34,255 nt of DNA from a virus (lineage: Duplodnaviria > Heunggongvirae > Uroviricota > Caudoviricetes): positions 1 through 34,255 of IMG/VR virus record IMGVR_UViG_638341087_000014. The stretch is one strand, 5' to 3'. Positions 1-9,248 of the stretch are shown in pieces. The notes beneath the pieces were generated by a model, which saw only the letters and a list, made by a program, of their open reading frames with translations, made no database searches and was not told the DNA's origin. The first letter of the stretch is position 1, and the number at the start of each line of letters is the position of its first letter. The translations under genes were made by a program, and so were the position numbers.

Positions 1-57
1 ATGAACGGCAAATCTAGGTTAGCCTCTTACGTGCCGAAAGGCAAGGAGAAGCAGGCT

Positions 58-213
58 ATGAAGCAGCAAAAGGCGATGTTAATCGCCCTGATCGTCATCT
101 GTTTAACCGTCATAGTGACGGCACTGGTAACGAGGAAAGACCTCTGCGAGGTACGAATCCGAACCGGCCAGACGGAGGTTGCTGTCTTCGTGGGCTACGA
201 ATCTGAGAAGTAA
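58..213 (+). CDS. hokD: Hok/Gef-family type I toxin (HokD/RelF-like), 51 aa
   Basis: Translation MKQQKAMLIALIVICLTVIVTALVTRKDLCEVRIRTGQTEVAVFVGYESEK has the Hok length, single TM helix and conserved C-terminal motif; AAGGAGA precedes the ATG at 58. The track ORF 1-213 is an upstream in-frame extension. Confidence 0.8.
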   Translation: MKQQKAMLIALIVICLTVIVTALVTRKDLCEVRIRTGQTEVAVFVGYESEK

Positions 214-284
214 GAGTGACCAGGCGGGAGAGTAATCTCCCCGCCACCTCTGATGTGTCGGCATCCTCAATGCACCCGTGCTTA

Positions 285-308
285 ACCCGCTTCGGCGGGT
301 TTATTTTA
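285..308 (+). terminator. Intrinsic terminator / 3' stem-loop of the hok transcript
   Basis: ACCCGC-TTCG-GCGGGT stem-loop followed by TTATTTTA. Confidence 0.55.
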
Positions 309-946
309 TCTGTAAATATTTTTATAAAAATAATGCCCACACACAGCATAAAACAAAAAGTATCACAGATAAAAAAGGAGCGTAATGTGCAGATTTGTTG
401 TTTTCCATATTTACTCACTTTAACATAATCAATATTGATATGGTTGTTGTTTCGGTGGTTTCAAACGAGATGTTATGGTGATCTGGTAAAATTGCATAAC
501 ATTAAAATTTAATTTATCTAATCGCTTTTAATAATAAGCGTTGTGTTTATCCCAGCAATCTGTTGTTTGACTTTTATTCCATTAATGTAGGGGCTTTACA
601 CTGGAACCAGTTTATTTATACTTTATACGCCAGCCTGAACAACTGGCACCTGCTGCGCCAGCAGAGACAACCGATGGCGCACAATACCAAACATCACAAT
701 TCTGATACCGACCTTGCCAGCAGGCACGGGCGGCGTTCTCATGCATTCAAATCTGACTGGTTCCAGCATGATCCATGCACTGAAGAACAGCCGAATGGCT
801 GATTCAGAACTACCGCAGACGTGGTTACGAGTTTCAGAAAGACCTCAGTCTCGACTTCCGACACTGGATCATCTCAGTCAGACTGCCTTACTCTGAACGC
901 CCACCGCGTCCGTCCCGCACATTCCAGCAACGGATCTGGAGGTAAC

Positions 947-1690
947 GTGCGGGTATTGCTTCGACCTGTTCCGGTACCGGAACTCGGGCTGGTGGTCCTT
1001 AAGCCTGGTCGTGAATCCATGCAGGTATTTCATAACCCTCGAGTGCTGGTGGAGCCGGAACCGAAAAGCATGCGCGGTCTGCCGTCCGGAGTTGTTCCTG
1101 CCATTCACCAGCCGCTGGCGGAAGACAAATCATTGCTGCCATTTTTCAGCAATGAGCGGGTAATTCGTGCTGCCGGTGGCACTGGTGCACTGTCTGACTG
1201 GCTCCTGCGTCATGTTAAATCCTGCCAGTGGCCTCATAGTGACTACCATCACAGTGAAATCGTCATACATCGTTATGGTACCGGAGCGATGGTGTTGTGC
1301 TGGCACTGCGACAACCAACTGCGTGACCAGACATCCGAATCACTCGAGCAACTTGCTCATCAAAACCTGTCTGCATGGATGATTGACGTCATACGCAATG
1401 CAATGAATGGTACGCAAGAGCGGGAATTATCGCTGGCTGAGTTATCCTGGTGGGCGGTCTGCAATCAGGTGGCGGACGCGCTACCGGAGGCAGTATTACG
1501 TCGTTCGTTGGGATTACGTACGGAAAAAATCCGCTCTGTGTACCGCGAGAGCGACATCGTACCGGGAGAACAGACAGCCACCAGCATACTGAAGCAGCGC
1601 ACAAAAAATATGTGCTACGCTCACGCCACAGCAACAGAACTCACCACAGGAAAAGACGTGTCAGTATTGCCGTTGATCCGGAGTCTGTGA
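947..1690 (+). CDS. DUF968-like phage protein, N-terminal portion (ends at in-frame TGA 1688-1690)
   Basis: Long ORF in same frame as the downstream conserved Cys/His region; GTG at 947 preceded by GGAGG. Start is uncertain (track ORF begins at 821; ATG at 1019 is an alternative). Confidence 0.45.
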   Translation: MRVLLRPVPVPELGLVVLKPGRESMQVFHNPRVLVEPEPKSMRGLPSGVVPAIHQPLAEDKSLLPFFSNERVIRAAGGTGALSDWLLRHVKSCQWPHSDYHHSEIVIHRYGTGAMVLCWHCDNQLRDQTSESLEQLAHQNLSAWMIDVIRNAMNGTQERELSLAELSWWAVCNQVADALPEAVLRRSLGLRTEKIRSVYRESDIVPGEQTATSILKQRTKNMCYAHATATELTTGKDVSVLPLIRSL

Positions 1691-1723
1691 ATCTTTCATG
1701 AAGCGAGTAAACGTCGCCGTTGG

Positions 1724-1987
1724 GTGAATGAGAAATACACGCGTTGGGTAAAGACACAGCCGTGTGCGTGTTGTGGTAAGCCAGCAGACGATCCCCATCA
1801 CGTGATTGGTCATGGTCAGGGCGGGATGGGGACAAAATCTCACGATATTTTCACGCTACCGCTGTGTCGGGAGCATCACAACGAGCTTCATGCGGACCCG
1901 CTGGCGTTCGAAGAAAAGCATGGTTCCCAGATTGATTTAATTTTTCGTTTTCTTGATCACGCCTTTGCAACCGGCGTGCTCGGGTAA
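1724..1987 (+). CDS. DUF968-like phage protein, conserved C-terminal Cys/His-rich portion
   Basis: Motif WVKTQPCACCGKPADDPHHV...LCREHHNELH; same reading frame as 947-1690, separated by a single TGA and 11 sense codons. Confidence 0.5.
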   Translation: MNEKYTRWVKTQPCACCGKPADDPHHVIGHGQGGMGTKSHDIFTLPLCREHHNELHADPLAFEEKHGSQIDLIFRFLDHAFATGVLG

Positions 1988-1999
1988 AAGAGGTTACTG

Positions 2000-2359
2000 A
2001 TGCGTATAGAGTTTGTTTTGCCTTACCCGCCAACGGTGAACACCTACTGGCGACGTCGTGGCAGTACATATTTTGTATCAAAAGCCGGTGAGCGTTATCG
2101 CCGTGATGTGGCGCTCATTGTTCGCCAGCAGCGACTGAGATTAAACCTGTCCGGAAGGCTGGCAATAAAAATTACTGCAGAGCCACCGGATAAGCGCCGC
2201 CGTGACCTGGACAATATTCTGAAAGCACCACTGGATGCGTTGACGCATGCGGGGTTGCTTATCGACGACGAGCAGTTTGATGAAATCAATATTGTGCGCG
2301 GTCAGGTCGTTCCTGGTGGTCGGTTGGGCGTGAAGATTTACAAAATTGAAAGTGAGTGA
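2000..2359 (+). CDS. rusA: Holliday junction resolvase RusA
   Basis: 119 aa; RusA hallmarks (PPTVNTYWRRRG, DKRRRDLDNILKAPLDALTHAGLLIDDEQ); AAAGAGG before the ATG; sits immediately upstream of the Q-like gene as in lambdoid nin regions. Confidence 0.9.
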   Translation: MRIEFVLPYPPTVNTYWRRRGSTYFVSKAGERYRRDVALIVRQQRLRLNLSGRLAIKITAEPPDKRRRDLDNILKAPLDALTHAGLLIDDEQFDEINIVRGQVVPGGRLGVKIYKIESE

Positions 2360-2367
2360 GCGTAAAT

Positions 2368-2922
2368 ATGATATACCCGGAAATTACAGGCAAAAGCGGT
2401 GAGCATTTACGCCTGAAAACGCTGGAAAGTGTCTGGCTCCAGGGGAAACTGCGTATGTGGGGGCGTTGGTCGTATATTGGCGGCGGTAAGACGGGAAATA
2501 TGTTCAACCAATTACTGACCTCTAAAAAGCTGACAAAAACGGCAATTAACGAGGCGCTCCGGAGGATGAAAAAAGCGGGTCTGGACAAACCTGAACTTGA
2601 GGCTTTTTTGCGGGATATGATCAACGGCAATCAAAAAAGCTGGCTGGCACATTGTACCGATTCAGAGGCGTTAATAATCGACAGGGTTATTGGTGAAGCC
2701 CTGGCCGGTTATCCCGGGCTGCTCAATGTCCTGAGTCAGCGTTATGTGGGGCGGGGGATGACTAAGCGCAAAATGGCTGAACTGCTGAATGATGCACACC
2801 CGGAATGGAGTTTAAGAACCTGTGAAAGACGCATTGAGCATTGGCTAAAGGTGGCAGAATTTATTTTGTACAAACCAATGGTTATGGCTTTTTGTATAGA
2901 GAAAAAAGTTATTGCTTTTTGA
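2368..2922 (+). CDS. Putative late-gene antiterminator (Q-like), assigned mainly by position
   Basis: About 184 aa, directly after rusA and directly before a strong intrinsic terminator, the lambdoid Q/pR'/tR' arrangement. I do not confidently recognise the family; GTG at 2356 is an alternative start. Confidence 0.5.
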   Translation: MIYPEITGKSGEHLRLKTLESVWLQGKLRMWGRWSYIGGGKTGNMFNQLLTSKKLTKTAINEALRRMKKAGLDKPELEAFLRDMINGNQKSWLAHCTDSEALIIDRVIGEALAGYPGLLNVLSQRYVGRGMTKRKMAELLNDAHPEWSLRTCERRIEHWLKVAEFILYKPMVMAFCIEKKVIAF

Positions 2923-2999
2923 CGTAAAAACTGCTTCAATGCCGGTACGCTTCGCAAAGCTGTACCGCGAGGCGAATAGCAGACATGGACATTTGAAAG

Positions 3000-3025
3000 A
3001 GCCCGCTTTTTGCGGGTTTTTTTTT
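3000..3025 (+). terminator. tR'-like intrinsic terminator downstream of the Q-like gene
   Basis: GCCCGC-TTTTT-GCGGG stem-loop followed by a 9-T run, about 80 bp after the Q-like stop. Confidence 0.6.
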
Positions 3026-3148
3026 ATGCCTGAAAAACGGTACAGGACGTTAAACGCGCTGATGGTTGCGAATACCGGTCTTTCAGCTTGCTGGCTTTTT
3101 CGACAAGAGCTATTGGTATGTCACGTTAACCAGAAAAGGAAAAAAGAC

Positions 3149-3346
3149 ATGCTAAAACAGCAGGATATGACCGAAACTGCCAGAGTGGTGTTTAATGAAT
3201 TAAGCGTCACCGAACCGGCGACCGTCGGGGAAATTGCGCAGAATACGTACCTTTCACGCGAACGCTGCCAGTTAATACTGACTCAGCTTGTTATGGCGGG
3301 TCTGGCAGATTATCAGTTCGGTTGTTACAGACGCCTTCCGCAGTGA
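3149..3346 (+). CDS. Small hypothetical protein (65 aa), possible helix-turn-helix
   Basis: ATG at 3149 preceded by AAAGGAAAAAAG; translation MLKQQDMTETARVVFNELSVTEPATVGEIAQNTYLSRERCQLILTQLVMAGLADYQFGCYRRLPQ; the stop lies inside a terminator hairpin. Confidence 0.4.
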   Translation: MLKQQDMTETARVVFNELSVTEPATVGEIAQNTYLSRERCQLILTQLVMAGLADYQFGCYRRLPQ

Positions 3347-3357
3347 AGGCTTTTTTA
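3333..3357 (+). terminator. Intrinsic terminator
   Basis: GCCTTC-CGCAGT-GAAGGC stem-loop followed by TTTTTTATTT. Confidence 0.5.
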
Positions 3358-3496
3358 TTTGTGGTAATGGGCGGCTGGTGGGTGTTAGCGGCACCTGCCA
3401 GCCATCTGCTCATGCGTTGGGGTCACAAGCAAACCTCAGGCCCATCTGCTTTGCGCAAAAGCGGTATGAGCCTATCAGAGAAGTGCTTATTGATCT

Positions 3497-4543
3497 ATGG
3501 CTAATACTGTAAAAATATCCAGTTGTGAGTTAATCAACGCTGATTGCCTGGAATTTATCCAGACTTTACCGGAAAACTCTGTCGATCTGATAGTCACAGA
3601 CCCGCCATACTTTAAAGTGAAGCCCGAGGGCTGGGATAACCAGTGGAAGGGCGACGATGATTACCTGAAATGGCTGGATCAGTGTCTGGCGCAATTCTGG
3701 CGGGTACTGAAACCTGCCGGAAGTCTCTACCTGTTCTGTGGTCATCGCCTGGCATCTGATACCGAAATCATGATGCGTGAGCGCTTTAATGTGCTGAACC
3801 ACATTATCTGGGCGAAGCCGTCCGGACGCTGGAACGGATGCAACAAGGAAAGCCTGCGGGCGTATTTCCCGGCAACAGAGCGCATTCTGTTTGCTGAACA
3901 TTATCAGGGGCCCTACCAGCCCAAAAATGACGGCTATGTGGCACAGGGGCGCAAGCTTAAACAGCACGTCATGGCCCCGCTGATTTCTTACTTTCGTGAT
4001 GCGCGTGAATCACTGGGAATAACGTCAAAACAGATAGCGGAAGCCACCGGAAAGAAAAATATGGCTTCGCACTGGTTTGGTGCCAGTCAGTGGCAGTTAC
4101 CGAACGAAGCTGATTACAGAAAACTGCAGGCATTGTTTGCGCGTGTTACAGCAGAAAAGCATCAGCGCGGGGAACTGGAAAAGCCACACCACCAGCTGGT
4201 CAGCGCATACAGTGAACTGAACCGTCAATACGCCAGCCTGCTGGAAGAGTACAAATCTTTGCGGCGTTATTTTTCCGTATCAGCTGCCGTTCCGTATACG
4301 GATGTCTGGACGCACAGGCCTGTGCAGTATTATCCGGGCAAACATCCCTGTGAAAAACCGGCGGATATGTTGCGGCAGATAATTGAGGCCAGCAGTCGCC
4401 CCGGTGATTTGGTTGCTGATTTTTTTATGGGGTCAGGTTCCACAATAAAGGCAGCATTGTCACTGGAGCGTCGGGCTATTGGTGTGGAACTGGATGAAGG
4501 GCGATTTAATCAGACTGTAACTGAAATAAAAAATATCTGTTAA
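3497..4543 (+). CDS. DNA methyltransferase, beta-class N6-adenine/N4-cytosine type (orphan, no restriction partner in window)
   Basis: 348 aa; N-terminal DPPY motif (LIVTDPPYF) and C-terminal FxGxG AdoMet motif (DFFMGSGST): motif IV before motif I. Confidence 0.85.
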   Translation: MANTVKISSCELINADCLEFIQTLPENSVDLIVTDPPYFKVKPEGWDNQWKGDDDYLKWLDQCLAQFWRVLKPAGSLYLFCGHRLASDTEIMMRERFNVLNHIIWAKPSGRWNGCNKESLRAYFPATERILFAEHYQGPYQPKNDGYVAQGRKLKQHVMAPLISYFRDARESLGITSKQIAEATGKKNMASHWFGASQWQLPNEADYRKLQALFARVTAEKHQRGELEKPHHQLVSAYSELNRQYASLLEEYKSLRRYFSVSAAVPYTDVWTHRPVQYYPGKHPCEKPADMLRQIIEASSRPGDLVADFFMGSGSTIKAALSLERRAIGVELDEGRFNQTVTEIKNIC

Positions 4544-4623
4544 TTGTGCATGGTGTTATTTCTGATAATTCCGGAATAATAAAAATATATATGTATATTT
4601 ACAATTGCTGACGAGCATTTTTA

Positions 4624-4651
4624 TTGAAAGCGTCCGGGTTATTCGTATTAT
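4624..4651 (+). promoter_or_regulatory. Candidate sigma70 promoter for the tRNA cluster
   Basis: TTGAAA (4624-4629), 16-bp spacer, TATTAT (4646-4651), about 30 bp upstream of the first tRNA. Confidence 0.3.
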
Positions 4652-4683
4652 TGTGCCGCGTCAGAGCAATGATGCAATGGACA

Positions 4684-4760
4684 GGCCCTTTAGCTCAGTT
4701 GGTCAGAGCGAGCGACTCATAATCGCCAGGTCGCTGGTTCAAGTCCAGCAAGGGCCACCA
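4684..4760 (+). tRNA. tRNA with CAU anticodon, ileX-like (tRNA-Ile2, lysidine type), often auto-annotated as tRNA-Met
   Basis: 77 nt cloverleaf folded by hand: acceptor GGCCCTT/AAGGGCC, T-arm GCTGG-TTCAAGT-CCAGC, anticodon loop CTCATAA, 3' CCA encoded. Confidence 0.8.
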
Positions 4761-4761
4761 G

Positions 4762-4838
4762 CCGCCACTAGCTCATCCGGATAGAGCATCAACCTTCTAA
4801 GTTGATGGTGCGAGGTTCGAGTCCTCGGTGGCGGGCCA
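4762..4838 (+). tRNA. tRNA-Arg (anticodon UCU)
   Basis: 77 nt: acceptor CCGCCAC/GTGGCGG, anticodon stem-loop TCAAC-CTTCTAA-GTTGA, T-arm CGAGG-TTCGAGT-CCTCG, CCA encoded. 5' end could shift by 1 nt. Confidence 0.8.
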
Positions 4839-4840
4839 GT

Positions 4841-4916
<76 letters not shown>

Positions 4917-4919
4917 TAT

Positions 4920-4994
<75 letters not shown>

Positions 4995-5246
4995 GAGCGA
5001 GATAGGTAGTTTTTTGGCACTGACACATTTTATGTAGGGCGTTTTTCCTGACTCCTTACCTCGCCCTGTACTGTAATGAGTGATATCGGTTGCAGTACCA
5101 GTGCTGTTTTTTACGCCACCGGAATGGTGCATTATTGGTAGAGATTTGCAATGTCTCTGGCAGGGGCCGGTGATGCATCATCCCGATGTTGTAAACATCG
5201 CTCAGATAACGTTGAAATCAATCAAACCCAGGAAATACATCTTTAA

Positions 5247-5270
5247 CCGCCGCACCAGGCGGTTTTTTTT
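5247..5270 (+). terminator. Intrinsic terminator downstream of the tRNA cluster
   Basis: CCGCC-GCACCA-GGCGG stem-loop followed by an 8-T run. Confidence 0.55.
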
Positions 5271-5646
5271 ATTCTTAATTCGAAGAAAAAGAAAACACGG
5301 ACATTGATAATGTCCGCGTGGCAATGCCATGTAAGTTAGCGATGAATATGGCGCAAAAAAAAGCGCGGCCGTCGGATTAACGCCGCGGGACAAAGTCCGT
5401 GAAGAATCATAAGCATCTGTCTCCTCCGGGAGACGAGTTGATATTACTAAGCTTTAAAAATGGTTTAAATCCTCAGATTAACCTTAATTTTCGGTAAGTC
5501 TTATTTCATTTCTTCGCGCCACGCCCGGCGCACATCAAAAAACCACAGAGCCTTTCAGGGGTGAGCTTACGGGATGGTCAGTGTGACTTTCTCTGTGGGC
5601 TGGTCACCCCCGGGCGCAGGCTCACCCACTAAAAGGAAAAGTCACG

Positions 5647-6072
5647 ATGTTTGGTATTTTCAAAAAGAAAACCCGCAAGGCCATTACCGAAGTGAAGAAG
5701 ATGGAGAACCGCGACGCAGTGGAGGCGACCGTCTGGGGCGCGTATTCCATTGCATATGCTGACGGCACCTGCGATGCGAAAGAAATCGCTGTGCTGGAGA
5801 AAACCATTGCAGCACTTCCTGCTTTTGCGCCGTTCTCGGGTGAGATTGCACAAATGAGTGCAAATATCCGCGCCCGTTATGAAGCGTCGCCGCGCTCTGC
5901 CAATGCTGAAGCCCTTCGCCAGCTGGCTGATGTTGCCGGTACTGATGATGCAGTTAATGTACTGTGCCTGTGTCTGGATATCGCAGACCAGGATGGCATT
6001 GGTCCGGATGAAGAAGCGCAGCTCAAGAAAATTGCTCAGGCGCTGCAGTTACCGCTGGAGCAGTACCTGTGA
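5647..6072 (+). CDS. TerB-like (tellurite-resistance TerB family) domain protein, 141 aa
   Basis: Pattern resembling TerB (two helical repeats with conserved AxxDG...EE/DEE, e.g. SIAYADGTCDAKEIAVLEK and LDIADQDGIGPDEEAQLKKIAQAL); AAAAGGAAAAG before ATG 5647. Family call from remembered pattern, not a search. Confidence 0.6.
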   Translation: MFGIFKKKTRKAITEVKKMENRDAVEATVWGAYSIAYADGTCDAKEIAVLEKTIAALPAFAPFSGEIAQMSANIRARYEASPRSANAEALRQLADVAGTDDAVNVLCLCLDIADQDGIGPDEEAQLKKIAQALQLPLEQYL

Positions 6073-6221
6073 AAAGTGCGCGCCTTGTGCTGGCTGCCAT
6101 CCTGCTGTTTCTGGTAGTGGCGGTGGATTTCACCGGACGGCTGATGTCGGTGCTGGCAGATGGTGTGCTGGTGGCGATGGCGCTGGTCGTGCTCCGGCCT
6201 TTACTGCGTAAATCTGAATAA
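6069..6221 (+). CDS. Candidate small membrane protein (50 aa, two hydrophobic segments), start overlapping the TerB-like stop (GTGA)
   Basis: Translation from GTG 6069: MKSARLVLAAILLFLVVAVDFTGRLMSVLADGVLVAMALVVLRPLLRKSE; below the 60-aa cut-off of the ORF track; ends just before a hairpin and terminator. Confidence 0.3.
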   Translation: MKSARLVLAAILLFLVVAVDFTGRLMSVLADGVLVAMALVVLRPLLRKSE

Positions 6222-6269
6222 CACCACACAAAAGGCATCTGCGGGTGCCTTTAACGGGGTGTTTTTTAC

Positions 6270-6296
6270 GGGCCGCTGGTGGCCCTTTTTTATTTA
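6270..6296 (+). terminator. Intrinsic terminator immediately upstream of the lysis genes
   Basis: GGGCC-GCTGGT-GGCCC stem-loop followed by TTTTTTTATTT; the holin ribosome-binding site follows directly. Confidence 0.6.
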
Positions 6297-6310
6297 CAGG
6301 AGAAAAAAGT

Positions 6311-6703
6311 ATGTCTGAACCCTTATCCGGTTCCGGCACGGCTGCGGCGCTCGGTGGGGCGACGGTGTACGGGCTGTTTACCGGAACGGATTTCGGGATT
6401 GTGTTTGGTGCGTTCGCCGGGGCGTTATTTGTGGCAACGATGCCGCAGGCGCTTTCAGCCTGGCGTGTGGCGGCGCATTTTCTGGTGTCGTTCATTATCG
6501 GCGTGCTGGGCGCAGAGGTTCTGGCATCCTGGCTGGTAAAGCATACAGAGTTTGACGGTGCACCTGTCGACGCATTGTGTGCAGTACTGGTGTCAGTGGT
6601 GTCGGTGAAGATTCTCTCGTTCATCCACCAGCAGGATATTGCATCGCTGGTGTCCGGCCTGTTCTCCCGCCTGCGGGGTGGAGGAGGCGGCAATGTTAAG
6701 TAA
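6311..6703 (+). CDS. Putative holin (three predicted TM segments)
   Basis: 130 aa, AGGAGA before ATG 6311, three hydrophobic helices, first gene of a cassette ending in an endolysin. Confidence 0.55.
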   Translation: MSEPLSGSGTAAALGGATVYGLFTGTDFGIVFGAFAGALFVATMPQALSAWRVAAHFLVSFIIGVLGAEVLASWLVKHTEFDGAPVDALCAVLVSVVSVKILSFIHQQDIASLVSGLFSRLRGGGGGNVK

Positions 6704-6968
6704 CCTTCCCGGATTACTGAATGTGGCGTTATGCACGGTTATCGTGCTGACGCTCTTTTTTTATCGTCGCCGTGATTCCAGGCATAAACCGCTGATGTCA
6801 TGGCTGGCCTGGTTGCTGATGCTGCTGTATGCCTTTGCGCCCCTCAGCTATCTGTGTGGTCGCCCGTTAGCAACGGGCTGGCTGGAAGTGTTTTTTAATC
6901 TGTTGTTCTGCGTGCTGGTAATACGCGCACGCGGGAACGTCGCAAGAATCTTTCCATTGTTGAGGTGA
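6693..6968 (+). CDS. Putative second holin / holin-associated membrane protein
   Basis: 91 aa, three hydrophobic segments, GGAGGAGG before ATG 6693, overlaps the previous gene by 11 nt, directly upstream of the endolysin. Confidence 0.45.
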   Translation: MLSNLPGLLNVALCTVIVLTLFFYRRRDSRHKPLMSWLAWLLMLLYAFAPLSYLCGRPLATGWLEVFFNLLFCVLVIRARGNVARIFPLLR

Positions 6969-6970
6969 AT

Positions 6971-7348
6971 ATGTCGGGTAAATTCAGATTTAGTCGTCGC
7001 AGTGAAAAAAATCTGGAGGGCGTTAAACCACAGCTGGTTGCTGTCGTTCGCCGTGCGCTGGAGCTGACGGAGGTTGATTTCGGTATTACGGAAGGGCTGC
7101 GCACGAAAGAACGCCAGAAACAGCTGGTCGCGGAAGGGAAAAGCCAGACCATGAACAGCCGCCACCTGACCGGTGATGCGGTGGATGTTGTTGCCTGGGT
7201 TGGCAGCCAGGTGTCATGGGACTGGCCTCTGTACGAGAAAATCGCGCAGGCATTTAAGCAGGCTGCCGCAGAGCTGGGAACCGCCATCGAATGGGGCGGG
7301 GACTGGAAAACACTGAAAGACGGGCCTCACTTTCAGTTGAAACGCTGA
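6971..7348 (+). CDS. Endolysin, peptidase M15 family (L-alanyl-D-glutamate peptidase type)
   Basis: 125 aa; zinc-peptidase motifs SRHLTGDAVD and GGDWKTLKDGPHFQ; GAGGTG before ATG 6971. Confidence 0.8.
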   Translation: MSGKFRFSRRSEKNLEGVKPQLVAVVRRALELTEVDFGITEGLRTKERQKQLVAEGKSQTMNSRHLTGDAVDVVAWVGSQVSWDWPLYEKIAQAFKQAAAELGTAIEWGGDWKTLKDGPHFQLKR

Positions 7349-7362
7349 TAACCAGGTGGGTT

Positions 7363-7545
7363 ATGAGCAGAAAACACTGGACACACAGAATGCCGCGAAC
7401 GGCGGCGAAATGGGCGCTGGTAGCGATACTGGTGCCTTTTTTATTGGTGGGATGCGTCAGCCTGGATAAGGCGCGCCTGTTTTTTGACGCTGCTTCTCAG
7501 GCCTGCCAGTTGATTGATGGCATCCGGCAGTGTACGCAGAACTGA
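7363..7545 (+). CDS. Small lipoprotein, possible o-spanin (Rz1-like)
   Basis: 60 aa; signal peptide with lipobox LLVGC, short mature part; sits at the end of the lysis cassette. No partner i-spanin identified. Confidence 0.4.
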   Translation: MSRKHWTHRMPRTAAKWALVAILVPFLLVGCVSLDKARLFFDAASQACQLIDGIRQCTQN

Positions 7546-7716
7546 TCGCAGGTAAGAGCAGAATATTTTGCTGAAAAATGAGGGGTGCGTCAGCGCACGG
7601 AAAGCATGAAATTCTGCGTTTGTGGTTATTCAATAAAATAAATTCTTTCTATCGCCGCGAATACTCAAATGTTGATCAGTGCCCGGTGCGGCGACAGGCT
7701 TTGATATCAGGAGACG

Positions 7717-8115
7717 ATGATGGAAAAAACAGAAAACAAACCGATTGCAATTGGTGCTGATGCTGCTCCGTTTAAGTTTGAGTTGTCTCAACTGGTGGAG
7801 ATGCGCATCAGTGATGAATGGGGTGAGGTTAAAGCCCGCGCGCAGTATGCGGATGGCGAAAACCAGTACTTGATCCACTACAAGGCAGCTGACGGTCGCG
7901 CCACGACGGAGTGGTTTGGTGAGTCAATGCTGGAAGCAACAGAAGATGATCGTCATCCAGGTTGTCCGGTATTTGCCGGTATGAAATTACCGGAAGGCGC
8001 AGTGGTTGAGCTGCAGCCGGGTGAGATGTTCGTAATGACAGACATCATTGATGGTAAACCGCAGTATTCGCGTATTGAAATGAATGATAAGAGTGCTCGC
8101 CTGATTCGTGAGTAA
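7717..8115 (+). CDS. Hypothetical protein (132 aa), family not recognised
   Basis: Clean ORF with CAGGAGACG before tandem ATGs (7717/7720); no TM or signal peptide; between the lysis cassette and cos. Confidence 0.6.
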   Translation: MMEKTENKPIAIGADAAPFKFELSQLVEMRISDEWGEVKARAQYADGENQYLIHYKAADGRATTEWFGESMLEATEDDRHPGCPVFAGMKLPEGAVVELQPGEMFVMTDIIDGKPQYSRIEMNDKSARLIRE

Positions 8116-8122
8116 CAGGCAT

Positions 8123-8160
8123 TACAGCAGTCCTTCACTCTAAGGGGCTGCTGTAATGTG
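8123..8160 (+). other. Stable hairpin (11-bp perfect stem) just after the 7717-8115 stop
   Basis: CATTACAGCAG ... CTGCTGTAATG inverted repeat; no U-tract on either strand. Confidence 0.4.
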
Positions 8161-8482
8161 AGAAATAAAAAACCGGTCACAGGGAGCAGCTACACAGAAC
8201 CGGCCGGCGAAGACCGCCAATACCACTCATGCATTGATGCAACATACTAATGACAATAGCCGCTATTGATGTAAATGCAACGTTATGCATCAACGAAAAT
8301 AAAAAACCGGCAGGGGAAATCCATTGAAGATTTGCCGGTGGCAAAAGAGGGCCATGTTTTTAACCTTAGTCGCAGAGTTACGGAGTGCAACTACGAATGC
8401 TGCCGGTATATGGCTGAATGGCGTTTCAATGATGTACGTCATCTTATCTGTAAATGTTAATGATAAACGCTCCCATTTGTGC

Positions 8483-8676
8483 GGGTCCTTTCCGGGAGTT
8501 GAAACACCGGGGGTCATAGCACGCGCAAAAACGCGCTATTTATGAAAATTTTTCAGGAAAAAGCATGTCGGTACTTCTCGCGCATAACTATTTGTTTTTT
8601 CTGACATCACATCAGTAAAAGGTCCGACATGAAAACACCCGAAAAAGGACATTTTAAGCGTTTTCATGTCGGACCC
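8483..8676 (+). promoter_or_regulatory. cos site region (cosQ-like, predicted cosN near 8500-8530, cosB-like terminase-binding repeats)
   Basis: GGGTCCTTTCCGG and CGCTATTTATGAAAATTTT are as I recall them flanking lambda cosN; three CATGTCGG-type elements (8564-8574, 8621-8636 inverted, 8660-8675) with a perfect 16-bp inverted repeat, directly upstream of the Nu1-like gene. Confidence 0.6.
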
Positions 8677-8699
8677 TGTATTTGATAGAGAAATGTATT

Positions 8700-9248
8700 G
8701 TGAAAGTTAACAAAAAGAAACTTGCCGAAATTTTCAACGTGGATCCGCGAACGATTGAACGCTGGCAGTCTCAGGGGCTATCTTGCGTCTCCGGAGGTAG
8801 CAAGGGTGTTGAATCTGTGTTTGATACCGCGATGGCAATTCAGTGGTACGCGCAGAGAGAAACTGATATCGAAAACGAAAAGCTCCGCAAAGAACTGGAA
8901 GATTTGCGTGCGGCTGCAGAATCAGATTTACAACCCGGCACCATTGACTATGAACGCTACCGGCTCACCAAAGCACAGGCTGACGCACAGGAGCTGAAAA
9001 ATGCCCGTGAAGAAGGGCTGGTGCTGGAAACGGAATTGTTTACCTTCATTCTGCAACGTGTGGCACAGGAGATTTCGGGGATACTTGTACGTGTGCCGCT
9101 GACATTACAGCGTAAATATCCGGATATTTCACCGTCACACCTTGATGTGGTGAAAACTGAAATCGCGAAAGCCTCCAATGTTGCAGCTAAAGCCGGTGAA
9201 AACGTGGGCAGGTGGATTGATGATTTCAGACGCACAGAAGGCAGCTAA
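8700..9248 (+). CDS. Terminase small subunit (lambda Nu1-like)
   Basis: Strong similarity to lambda Nu1 as I recall it ([59 protein letters not shown]). GTG 8700 chosen by alignment to the lambda N-terminus; track ORF starts at TTG 8682. Confidence 0.9.

Follow-up and report, generated by a model that had tools for sequence, protein, structure and literature searches.

In published descriptions, DUF968 proteins have a zinc-finger HNH motif fused to a DNA-binding region that resembles Orf; they are classed in the His-Me finger superfamily together with DUF1364 (YbcO, PDB 3g27) and are usually encoded next to rusA and Q (PMC4118853, PMC5714182). YbcO, classed with DUF968 in this scheme, also neighbours rusA (PMC5714182). 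In the DLP12 prophage, the DNA-binding protein (YbcN, Orf-like) and the HNH protein (YbcO) are products of separate genes, whereas the DUF968 family is encoded as one polypeptide. Phage P1 Ref is a RecA-dependent HNH nuclease (PDB 3plw). The protein considered here shares family (DUF968, PF06147), length class (348–352 aa) and neighbourhood (small ORF, DUF968, rusA, Q-like antiterminator) with prophage proteins such as YdfU of E. coli Qin, a likeness drawn at the level of the family.

We analysed a DUF968 gene that appears split in a 34,255-nt viral sequence (IMG/VR record IMGVR_UViG_638341087_000014). This whole stretch of DNA is called the window below, and positions and base changes refer to its plus strand. 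Compared with DUF968 (PF06147) prophage proteins such as Qin YdfU, the interruption occurs only in the deposited sequence of E. coli E22, and the apparent split is not homologous to the ybcN/ybcO arrangement of DLP12. Window positions 1–9043 are 100.000% identical to positions 182–9224 of the E22 contig AAJV02000004.1 (GCA_000167855.1). The strain is said to have been sequenced by Sanger shotgun, by Rasko et al. in 2008. Its record, AAJV00000000, represents an EPEC O103:H2 strain and is an unfinished draft of 127 contigs with a quality score of 3 (PMC2974192). Judging from the comparison of the deposited sequences, we consider it very likely that the interruption is an assembly or base-calling artefact and not a feature of the organism.

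The split DUF968 gene as deposited

The ORFs 947–1690 and 1724–1987 lie in one shared frame, as the first-pass annotation had claimed. A TGA occupies 1688–1690, 33 bases (11 codons) follow up to the GTG at 1724, and the downstream ORF indeed carries the Cys/His motif CACCGKPADDPHH...CREHHNELH. It was also correct to regard DUF968 as a single-polypeptide family with a C-terminal Cys/His cluster, and both ORFs match this one family. Pfam DUF968 aligns with the first ORF over profile positions 1–61 (51.2 bits) and with the second over positions 89–171 (153.1 bits; gathering cut-off 27.8 for both), while PHROG 96 ("HNH endonuclease", 334 positions) covers positions 1–222 in the first and 249–333 in the second. 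Thus, the split of a single gene is real in the window sequence and does not reflect a chance pairing. No one polypeptide spans the whole DUF968 profile in the window as written, since positions 62–88 of the Pfam profile and 223–248 of PHROG 96 are absent between the ORFs. With some 26 profile positions lost between the pieces, a lone stop codon is insufficient as an explanation. The view that the ORFs are separated only by the TGA and 11 sense codons was therefore wrong, and DNA alignment shows nine separate 1-base deletions in this region.

The gene starts with the GTG at 947, with a GGAGG 5 nt upstream, and follows its native frame through residues 1–221 (947–1611), which are identical to those of the intact 349-aa protein from a near-identical prophage (L153, see below). 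A corrupted patch with nine 1-base deletions and shifting frames follows at 1612–1708, in place of residues 222–257 of the intact protein. From 1709 to the TAA stop at 1987, the native frame is resumed (KRRRWVNEKY...) and encodes the C-terminal HNH (His-Me finger) domain, which matches Pfam DUF968 positions 89–171 and HNHc_6. The product of this last part differs from the L153 protein in one residue. The difference comes from a private C>G at 1802 (CCT>CGT), which yields HHVIGHG for HHLIGHG and adjoins the catalytic His pair. The Val variant of the repaired protein does not occur in a collection of 15 billion proteins that does contain the Leu form. Exact look-ups of the window's fragment proteins in the protein collection were likewise negative, which fits the E22 record, where no gene has been called between hok and rusA.

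Nine deleted bases and the intact gene in near-identical prophages

Full-length E. coli homologues are single ORFs of 1047–1059 nt. In DNA alignments, the window gene is 9 nt shorter than all of them, and the shortfall lies within a stretch of about 100 nt. Elsewhere within the gene, there are no indels relative to the homologues, neither in the 659 nt upstream of the patch nor in the 278 nt downstream. Alignment to full-length homologues, the check that the first-pass annotation had proposed, bore out one split gene but replaced the lone stop with nine separate 1-base deletions (1611–1707). The first is a TT>T after 1611. Two CC>C changes follow around 1618–1620, CCC>CC and CC>C around 1625–1629, and two GG>G at 1659–1661. 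The last two deletions, at 1687 and 1707, are CCT>GT changes, i.e. each comes with an adjacent C>G. All nine deleted bases were taken from runs of two or three identical bases, which has a probability of about 1e-3 given that 47% of the patch bases lie in runs. The chance that all nine would be packed into 98 nt when the gene has 1050 nt is about 5e-8, and that of ten differences within 200 nt of the 9 kb compared about 1e-13.

As the net loss amounts to nine bases, the frame is restored after the patch. Outside the family's frame are the 97 bases from 1612 to 1708, corresponding to the 26 codons ahead of the TGA and the six behind it. The native peptide can be recovered from this stretch in pieces distributed over three frames (RTKN, QQQNSPQEKT, VSIAVDPES, ESFMKR and KRRRWVN). 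The patch covers the linker and the conserved VDPESPESFMKRP segment. The TGA results from reading this multiply frameshifted stretch in the frame of 947; it spans a deletion site, being an out-of-frame reading of ...GAGTCTG-TGAATC... where the intact gene has GAG TCT CCT GAA TCT. Inactivation by a single nonsense mutation had been the first suggestion for this gene, and its premise does not hold: the stop did not arise by substitution, and the codons around it (1612–1708) are out of the family's frame.

Four independent assemblies served for close comparison, namely GCA_013047345.1 (L153) over 9.2 kb, GCA_013353265.1 (L152/L159) over 4.6–5.2 kb, GCA_017721195.1 (L160) over about 3 kb up to a module boundary, and ENA ERZ27268948 (L161) through position 2112. 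In the stretches compared closely, they agree with one another at every site at which they disagree with the window, and the differences are thus private to one assembly. Bases 1–9224 of the E22 contig differ from L153 at 13 sites, all at contig positions 146–1983; there is no difference in contig positions 1984–9224. The sites comprise ten 1-base deletions, one 1-base insertion and two isolated substitutions, and each of the 11 indels is a run-length change, the ten deletions shortening runs and the insertion lengthening a run of C. Private sites within the window are an inserted C at 242, the loss of a G at 790, the nine deletions in the DUF968 gene, two of them with the adjacent C>G, and the C>G at 1802. 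A further E22-private difference lies at contig position 146, outside the window. The extra C at 242 (CCC>CCCC) is in non-coding DNA downstream of hok and is missing in L153, L152/L159 and L160, whose sequences match the window in all other respects at this place. The loss of one G (GG>G) after 790 frameshifts a conserved 90-aa ORF at 674–945, and the repaired 90-aa protein has exact matches in 443 contigs.

All four assemblies encode the same intact 349-aa DUF968 protein as one ORF. Restoring the lost bases in the window gives exactly this protein, which is present in the protein collection. In the four near-identical assemblies, one polypeptide covers the whole Pfam profile (positions 1–171), so that the profile gap in the window belongs to the deposited sequence.

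The shortened version of the gene was not found elsewhere. Among 5426 complete E. coli genomes searched, 4471 had a match and none carried it. Four sub-strings of the patch were absent from IMG/VR, where the intact string occurs in more than 120 contigs; the longest patch string was absent from the GTDB species representatives and one patch string from the JGI metagenomes. When full-length copies of the gene were extracted from fetched loci, at least 102 of 104 were intact ORFs, and the two copies that appeared disrupted had no frameshift (one proved intact on inspection and one had been clipped by 2 nt during extraction). The neighbouring genes tell the same story. The exact RusA protein of the window occurs in 525 blocks of the collection, with an intact DUF968 gene upstream in 10 of the 10 contexts shown, and the exact DUF1133 protein is likewise accompanied by DUF968 as one ORF of 348–352 aa in 10 of 10 contexts shown. 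For the exact methyltransferase, this holds for four of the five contexts that were long enough; the fifth is the window's own source record. Relatives with two separate genes, which would have undermined the notion of a split gene, were not seen: every close relative examined with the same neighbours has a single ORF of 348–352 aa.

Origin of the interruption

Of the explanations offered at first, a sequencing error is the one that gained support. The deletions are private, clustered and run-shortening, and near-identical prophages have the intact gene. Zero substitutions over 7 kb mean that there was essentially no time for mutations to build up, and when nearly all changes are deletions that shorten runs, and all of them lie in the opening 2 kb of a draft contig, this is the signature of poor read support. 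The differences are of a technical type, run-length miscounts, and all fall in what would be a low-coverage zone. At the level of the reads, we infer that coverage of the first 2 kb of AAJV02000004.1 would have been thin and of low quality, as at a contig end, and that the consensus would have lost single bases from short runs (nine in 1611–1707, one at 790). The same 2 kb would also have acquired one extra base at 242 and one isolated substitution at 1802. The spacing of the presumed errors (1802, 1707, 1687, 1659–1661, five in 1611–1629, then clean sequence) resembles the decaying tail of one minus-strand read, and three changes at CCT, which is AGG on the minus strand, suggest a context-dependent miscall. 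On the other side, a consensus that keeps nine errors per about 100 bases would be a very poor stretch, the net loss of exactly nine bases with restoration of the frame amounts to a 1-in-3 coincidence, and the four comparison assemblies represent other isolates and not E22 itself.

An artefact of this kind calls for caution. In-frame "interrupted genes" in old drafts, especially near contig ends, can be stacked base-calling errors. Such small errors may total a multiple of three and should not be tallied as pseudogenes, recoding candidates or split genes. The first 2 kb or so of the E22 contig should be treated as unreliable in any use.

That E22 carries a real, private pseudogene appears unlikely. 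Here, a localised burst of mutations, e.g. by error-prone repair synthesis with −1 slips in runs, would have ruined the part of the DUF968 gene that encodes the linker and struck the neighbouring ORF as well. The changes are present in the deposited sequence and affect two adjacent genes, and decay of prophage accessory genes does occur. However, apart from the private sites there are no substitutions relative to L153 over 9.2 kb, which leaves essentially no divergence time for decay, and 11 of the 13 difference sites are 1-base indels, with all 13 located within 2 kb of the start of a draft contig. In the collections searched, none of the deletions turned up in a donor or sister sequence, and no repeat or quasi-palindrome able to template the changes was found. 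Were the deletions real, which we regard as decidedly improbable, one localised episode of slippage-prone DNA synthesis in E22 would have shortened about ten short runs by a base each within 1 kb of the prophage. This would be a natural mutation shower consisting almost entirely of −1 frameshifts that left the surrounding 7 kb untouched.

There is hardly any chance that the arrangement is functional, be it through readthrough or recoding of the TGA or through a natural split in which the HNH protein is translated separately from an N-terminal protein, as with YbcN and YbcO of DLP12. Both ORFs share a frame, and distant relatives include short proteins that match the N-terminal part only or the C-terminal part only; moreover, DLP12 has Orf-like and HNH-like proteins as separate genes (PMC4118853, PMC5714182). 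Yet 32 codons around the TGA are outside the family's frame, so that its flanking codons are not family sequence, and more than 100 close homologues all lack a stop at this position. Readthrough, another of the initial proposals, would not restore the protein, as the product would still lack three residues of the VDPExPxxFMxRPK segment, D246 and P257, which are nearly invariant, and K258, which is invariant. Independent translation of the C-terminal part had also been put forward for checking; no Shine-Dalgarno sequence precedes the GTG at 1724, where the DNA reads AAACGTCGCCGTTGG-GTG, and stand-alone C-terminal relatives start near residue 240 and not at residue 263.

That the lesion came by gene conversion or mis-assembly from a paralogous, decayed copy of the prophage within this genome has a negligible probability: the module is repeated within E. 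coli genomes, in up to nine copies, and the gene is a mosaic with different nearest relatives for 947–1480, 1481–1605 and 1713–1990, but the whole mosaic including its junctions is intact in L153, L159, L160 and L161 and is therefore older than the lesion, and a copy carrying the deletions was found nowhere in the collections searched.

Several other candidate causes were dropped. A gradient of private substitutions into the patch, suggested by an alignment of 87 sequences, dissolved into ordinary allele variants once closer relatives were included, and only the change at 1802 is private. A recombination junction as the cause was rejected because the same mosaic is intact in four assemblies, and templated mutation because no nearby inverted or direct repeat was found. 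The intact patch has a predicted folding energy of −23.2 kcal/mol and the window version one of −12.5 kcal/mol. Gel compression at a hairpin was nevertheless discarded, as about five of the nine deletions fall in predicted stems where 44% are expected, which is not significant. The changes are deletions and not adenine-directed substitutions, and no reverse transcriptase was noticed among the genes examined, which speaks against a diversity-generating retroelement.

The intact protein and its prophage setting

With the interruption set aside as a probable artefact, the real gene is a single 349-aa ORF whose product is predicted, from its sequence and a structural model of a homologue, to have a disordered linker between an N-terminal domain and a zinc-binding HNH (His-Me finger) domain at the C-terminus. 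The intact or repaired protein matches Pfam DUF968 contiguously over positions 1–171 with 258.8 bits. The sequence encoded at 1724–1987 contains the CxxC...DDPHH...CxxHHxxLH pattern of His-Me finger proteins, marking a putative nuclease, and the match of Pfam HNHc_6 to this ORF is weak. An AlphaFold model was made for the homologue P0021 from 29 diverse sequences. It has a mean pLDDT of 86.4, with only residues 227–240 below 50 (disordered), and shows strand-strand-helix at residues 285–319. As disorder is limited to residues 227–240, the first seven deletions would lie in or beside the linker, which is disordered, and the last two would hit a conserved segment. An alignment that included 29 full-length relatives, with identities down to 26%, shows conservation of VDPExPxxFMxRPK; K258 is invariant in it, and D246 and P257 nearly so. 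The window frame loses this segment.

In a fold search, run on the homologue's model and not on the window protein, P1 Ref was together with YbcO the closest match to the predicted C-terminal domain. Compared with Ref, the DUF968 protein has an additional N-terminal part of about 220 residues and the linker. Sequence-level searches of the PDB gave no significant match, and NCBIfam has no model for the DUF968 protein. The protein is most likely a metal-dependent HNH nuclease that would act with phage and host recombination machinery. The underlying gene codes for a common, uncharacterised prophage protein, and the fold link to P1 Ref is a reasonable lead for studies of rusA-linked recombination modules, independent of the window.

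A second Cys/His cluster is located in the N-terminal part (CQWPHSDYHH...LCWHCDNQL, window 1220–1330, residues ~93–125). Its motif order parallels that of the C-terminal HNH motif, and residues 105–125 are modelled as strand-strand-helix; the similarity is not significant in BLASTP (E = 0.45). This cluster may be a degenerate second His-Me finger, judging from the model.

The DUF968 gene is modular, one N-terminal part being joined to either of two HNH modules (loci L139 and L148). One of them (...PESPESFMKRPKRRRWVNEKY...) gives proteins of 348/349 aa; the other (...PESPAQYLQRQKPQREEMPVY...) gives proteins of 352 aa, and a different rusA and Q come after it. The switch from one module to the other occurs at the conserved string GTTGATCCGGAGTC (window ~1675–1690). 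A heptamer, A AAA AAT at window 1602–1608, is phased for a −1 ribosomal slip and occurs in 83 of 86 distinct homologues. In the −1 frame, a conserved TGA follows 25–26 codons later, so that a slip would yield an N-terminal-only product. The conservation of the heptamer may simply stem from the conserved T-K-N codons. The Logan assembly P0060 has A6>A5 at this heptamer.

The gene just precedes rusA and belongs to the recombination (nin-like) module of a lambdoid prophage. Genes are arranged locally in the order hok, the 90-aa ORF, DUF968, rusA, DUF1133 (Q-like), a small ORF, a DNA methyltransferase and tRNA genes, and the same order is found in thousands of E. coli genomes. The 90-aa ORF ends with a TAA within GGAGGTAAC-GTG, the region in which the DUF968 gene starts. 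This overlap with the ribosome-binding site suggests translational coupling of the two genes. The intact downstream neighbour at 2000–2359 matches Pfam RusA (Holliday junction resolvase). Four prophage tRNA genes are present downstream of the methyltransferase, at 4684–4994 (anticodons CAT, TCT, TGT and TCC); relatives have two to four.

The window as a whole represents a lambdoid prophage in which the head genes are lambda-like and the contractile-tail genes P2-like. Its early region (1–8400) is a mosaic that differs between the window's strain and E. coli 52F4. Positions 8482–34255 share 99.89% identity with a 52F4 prophage located next to an ompW remnant. Terminase, portal and head genes of this late region are lambda-like, and its sheath, tube and baseplate tail genes are P2-like.
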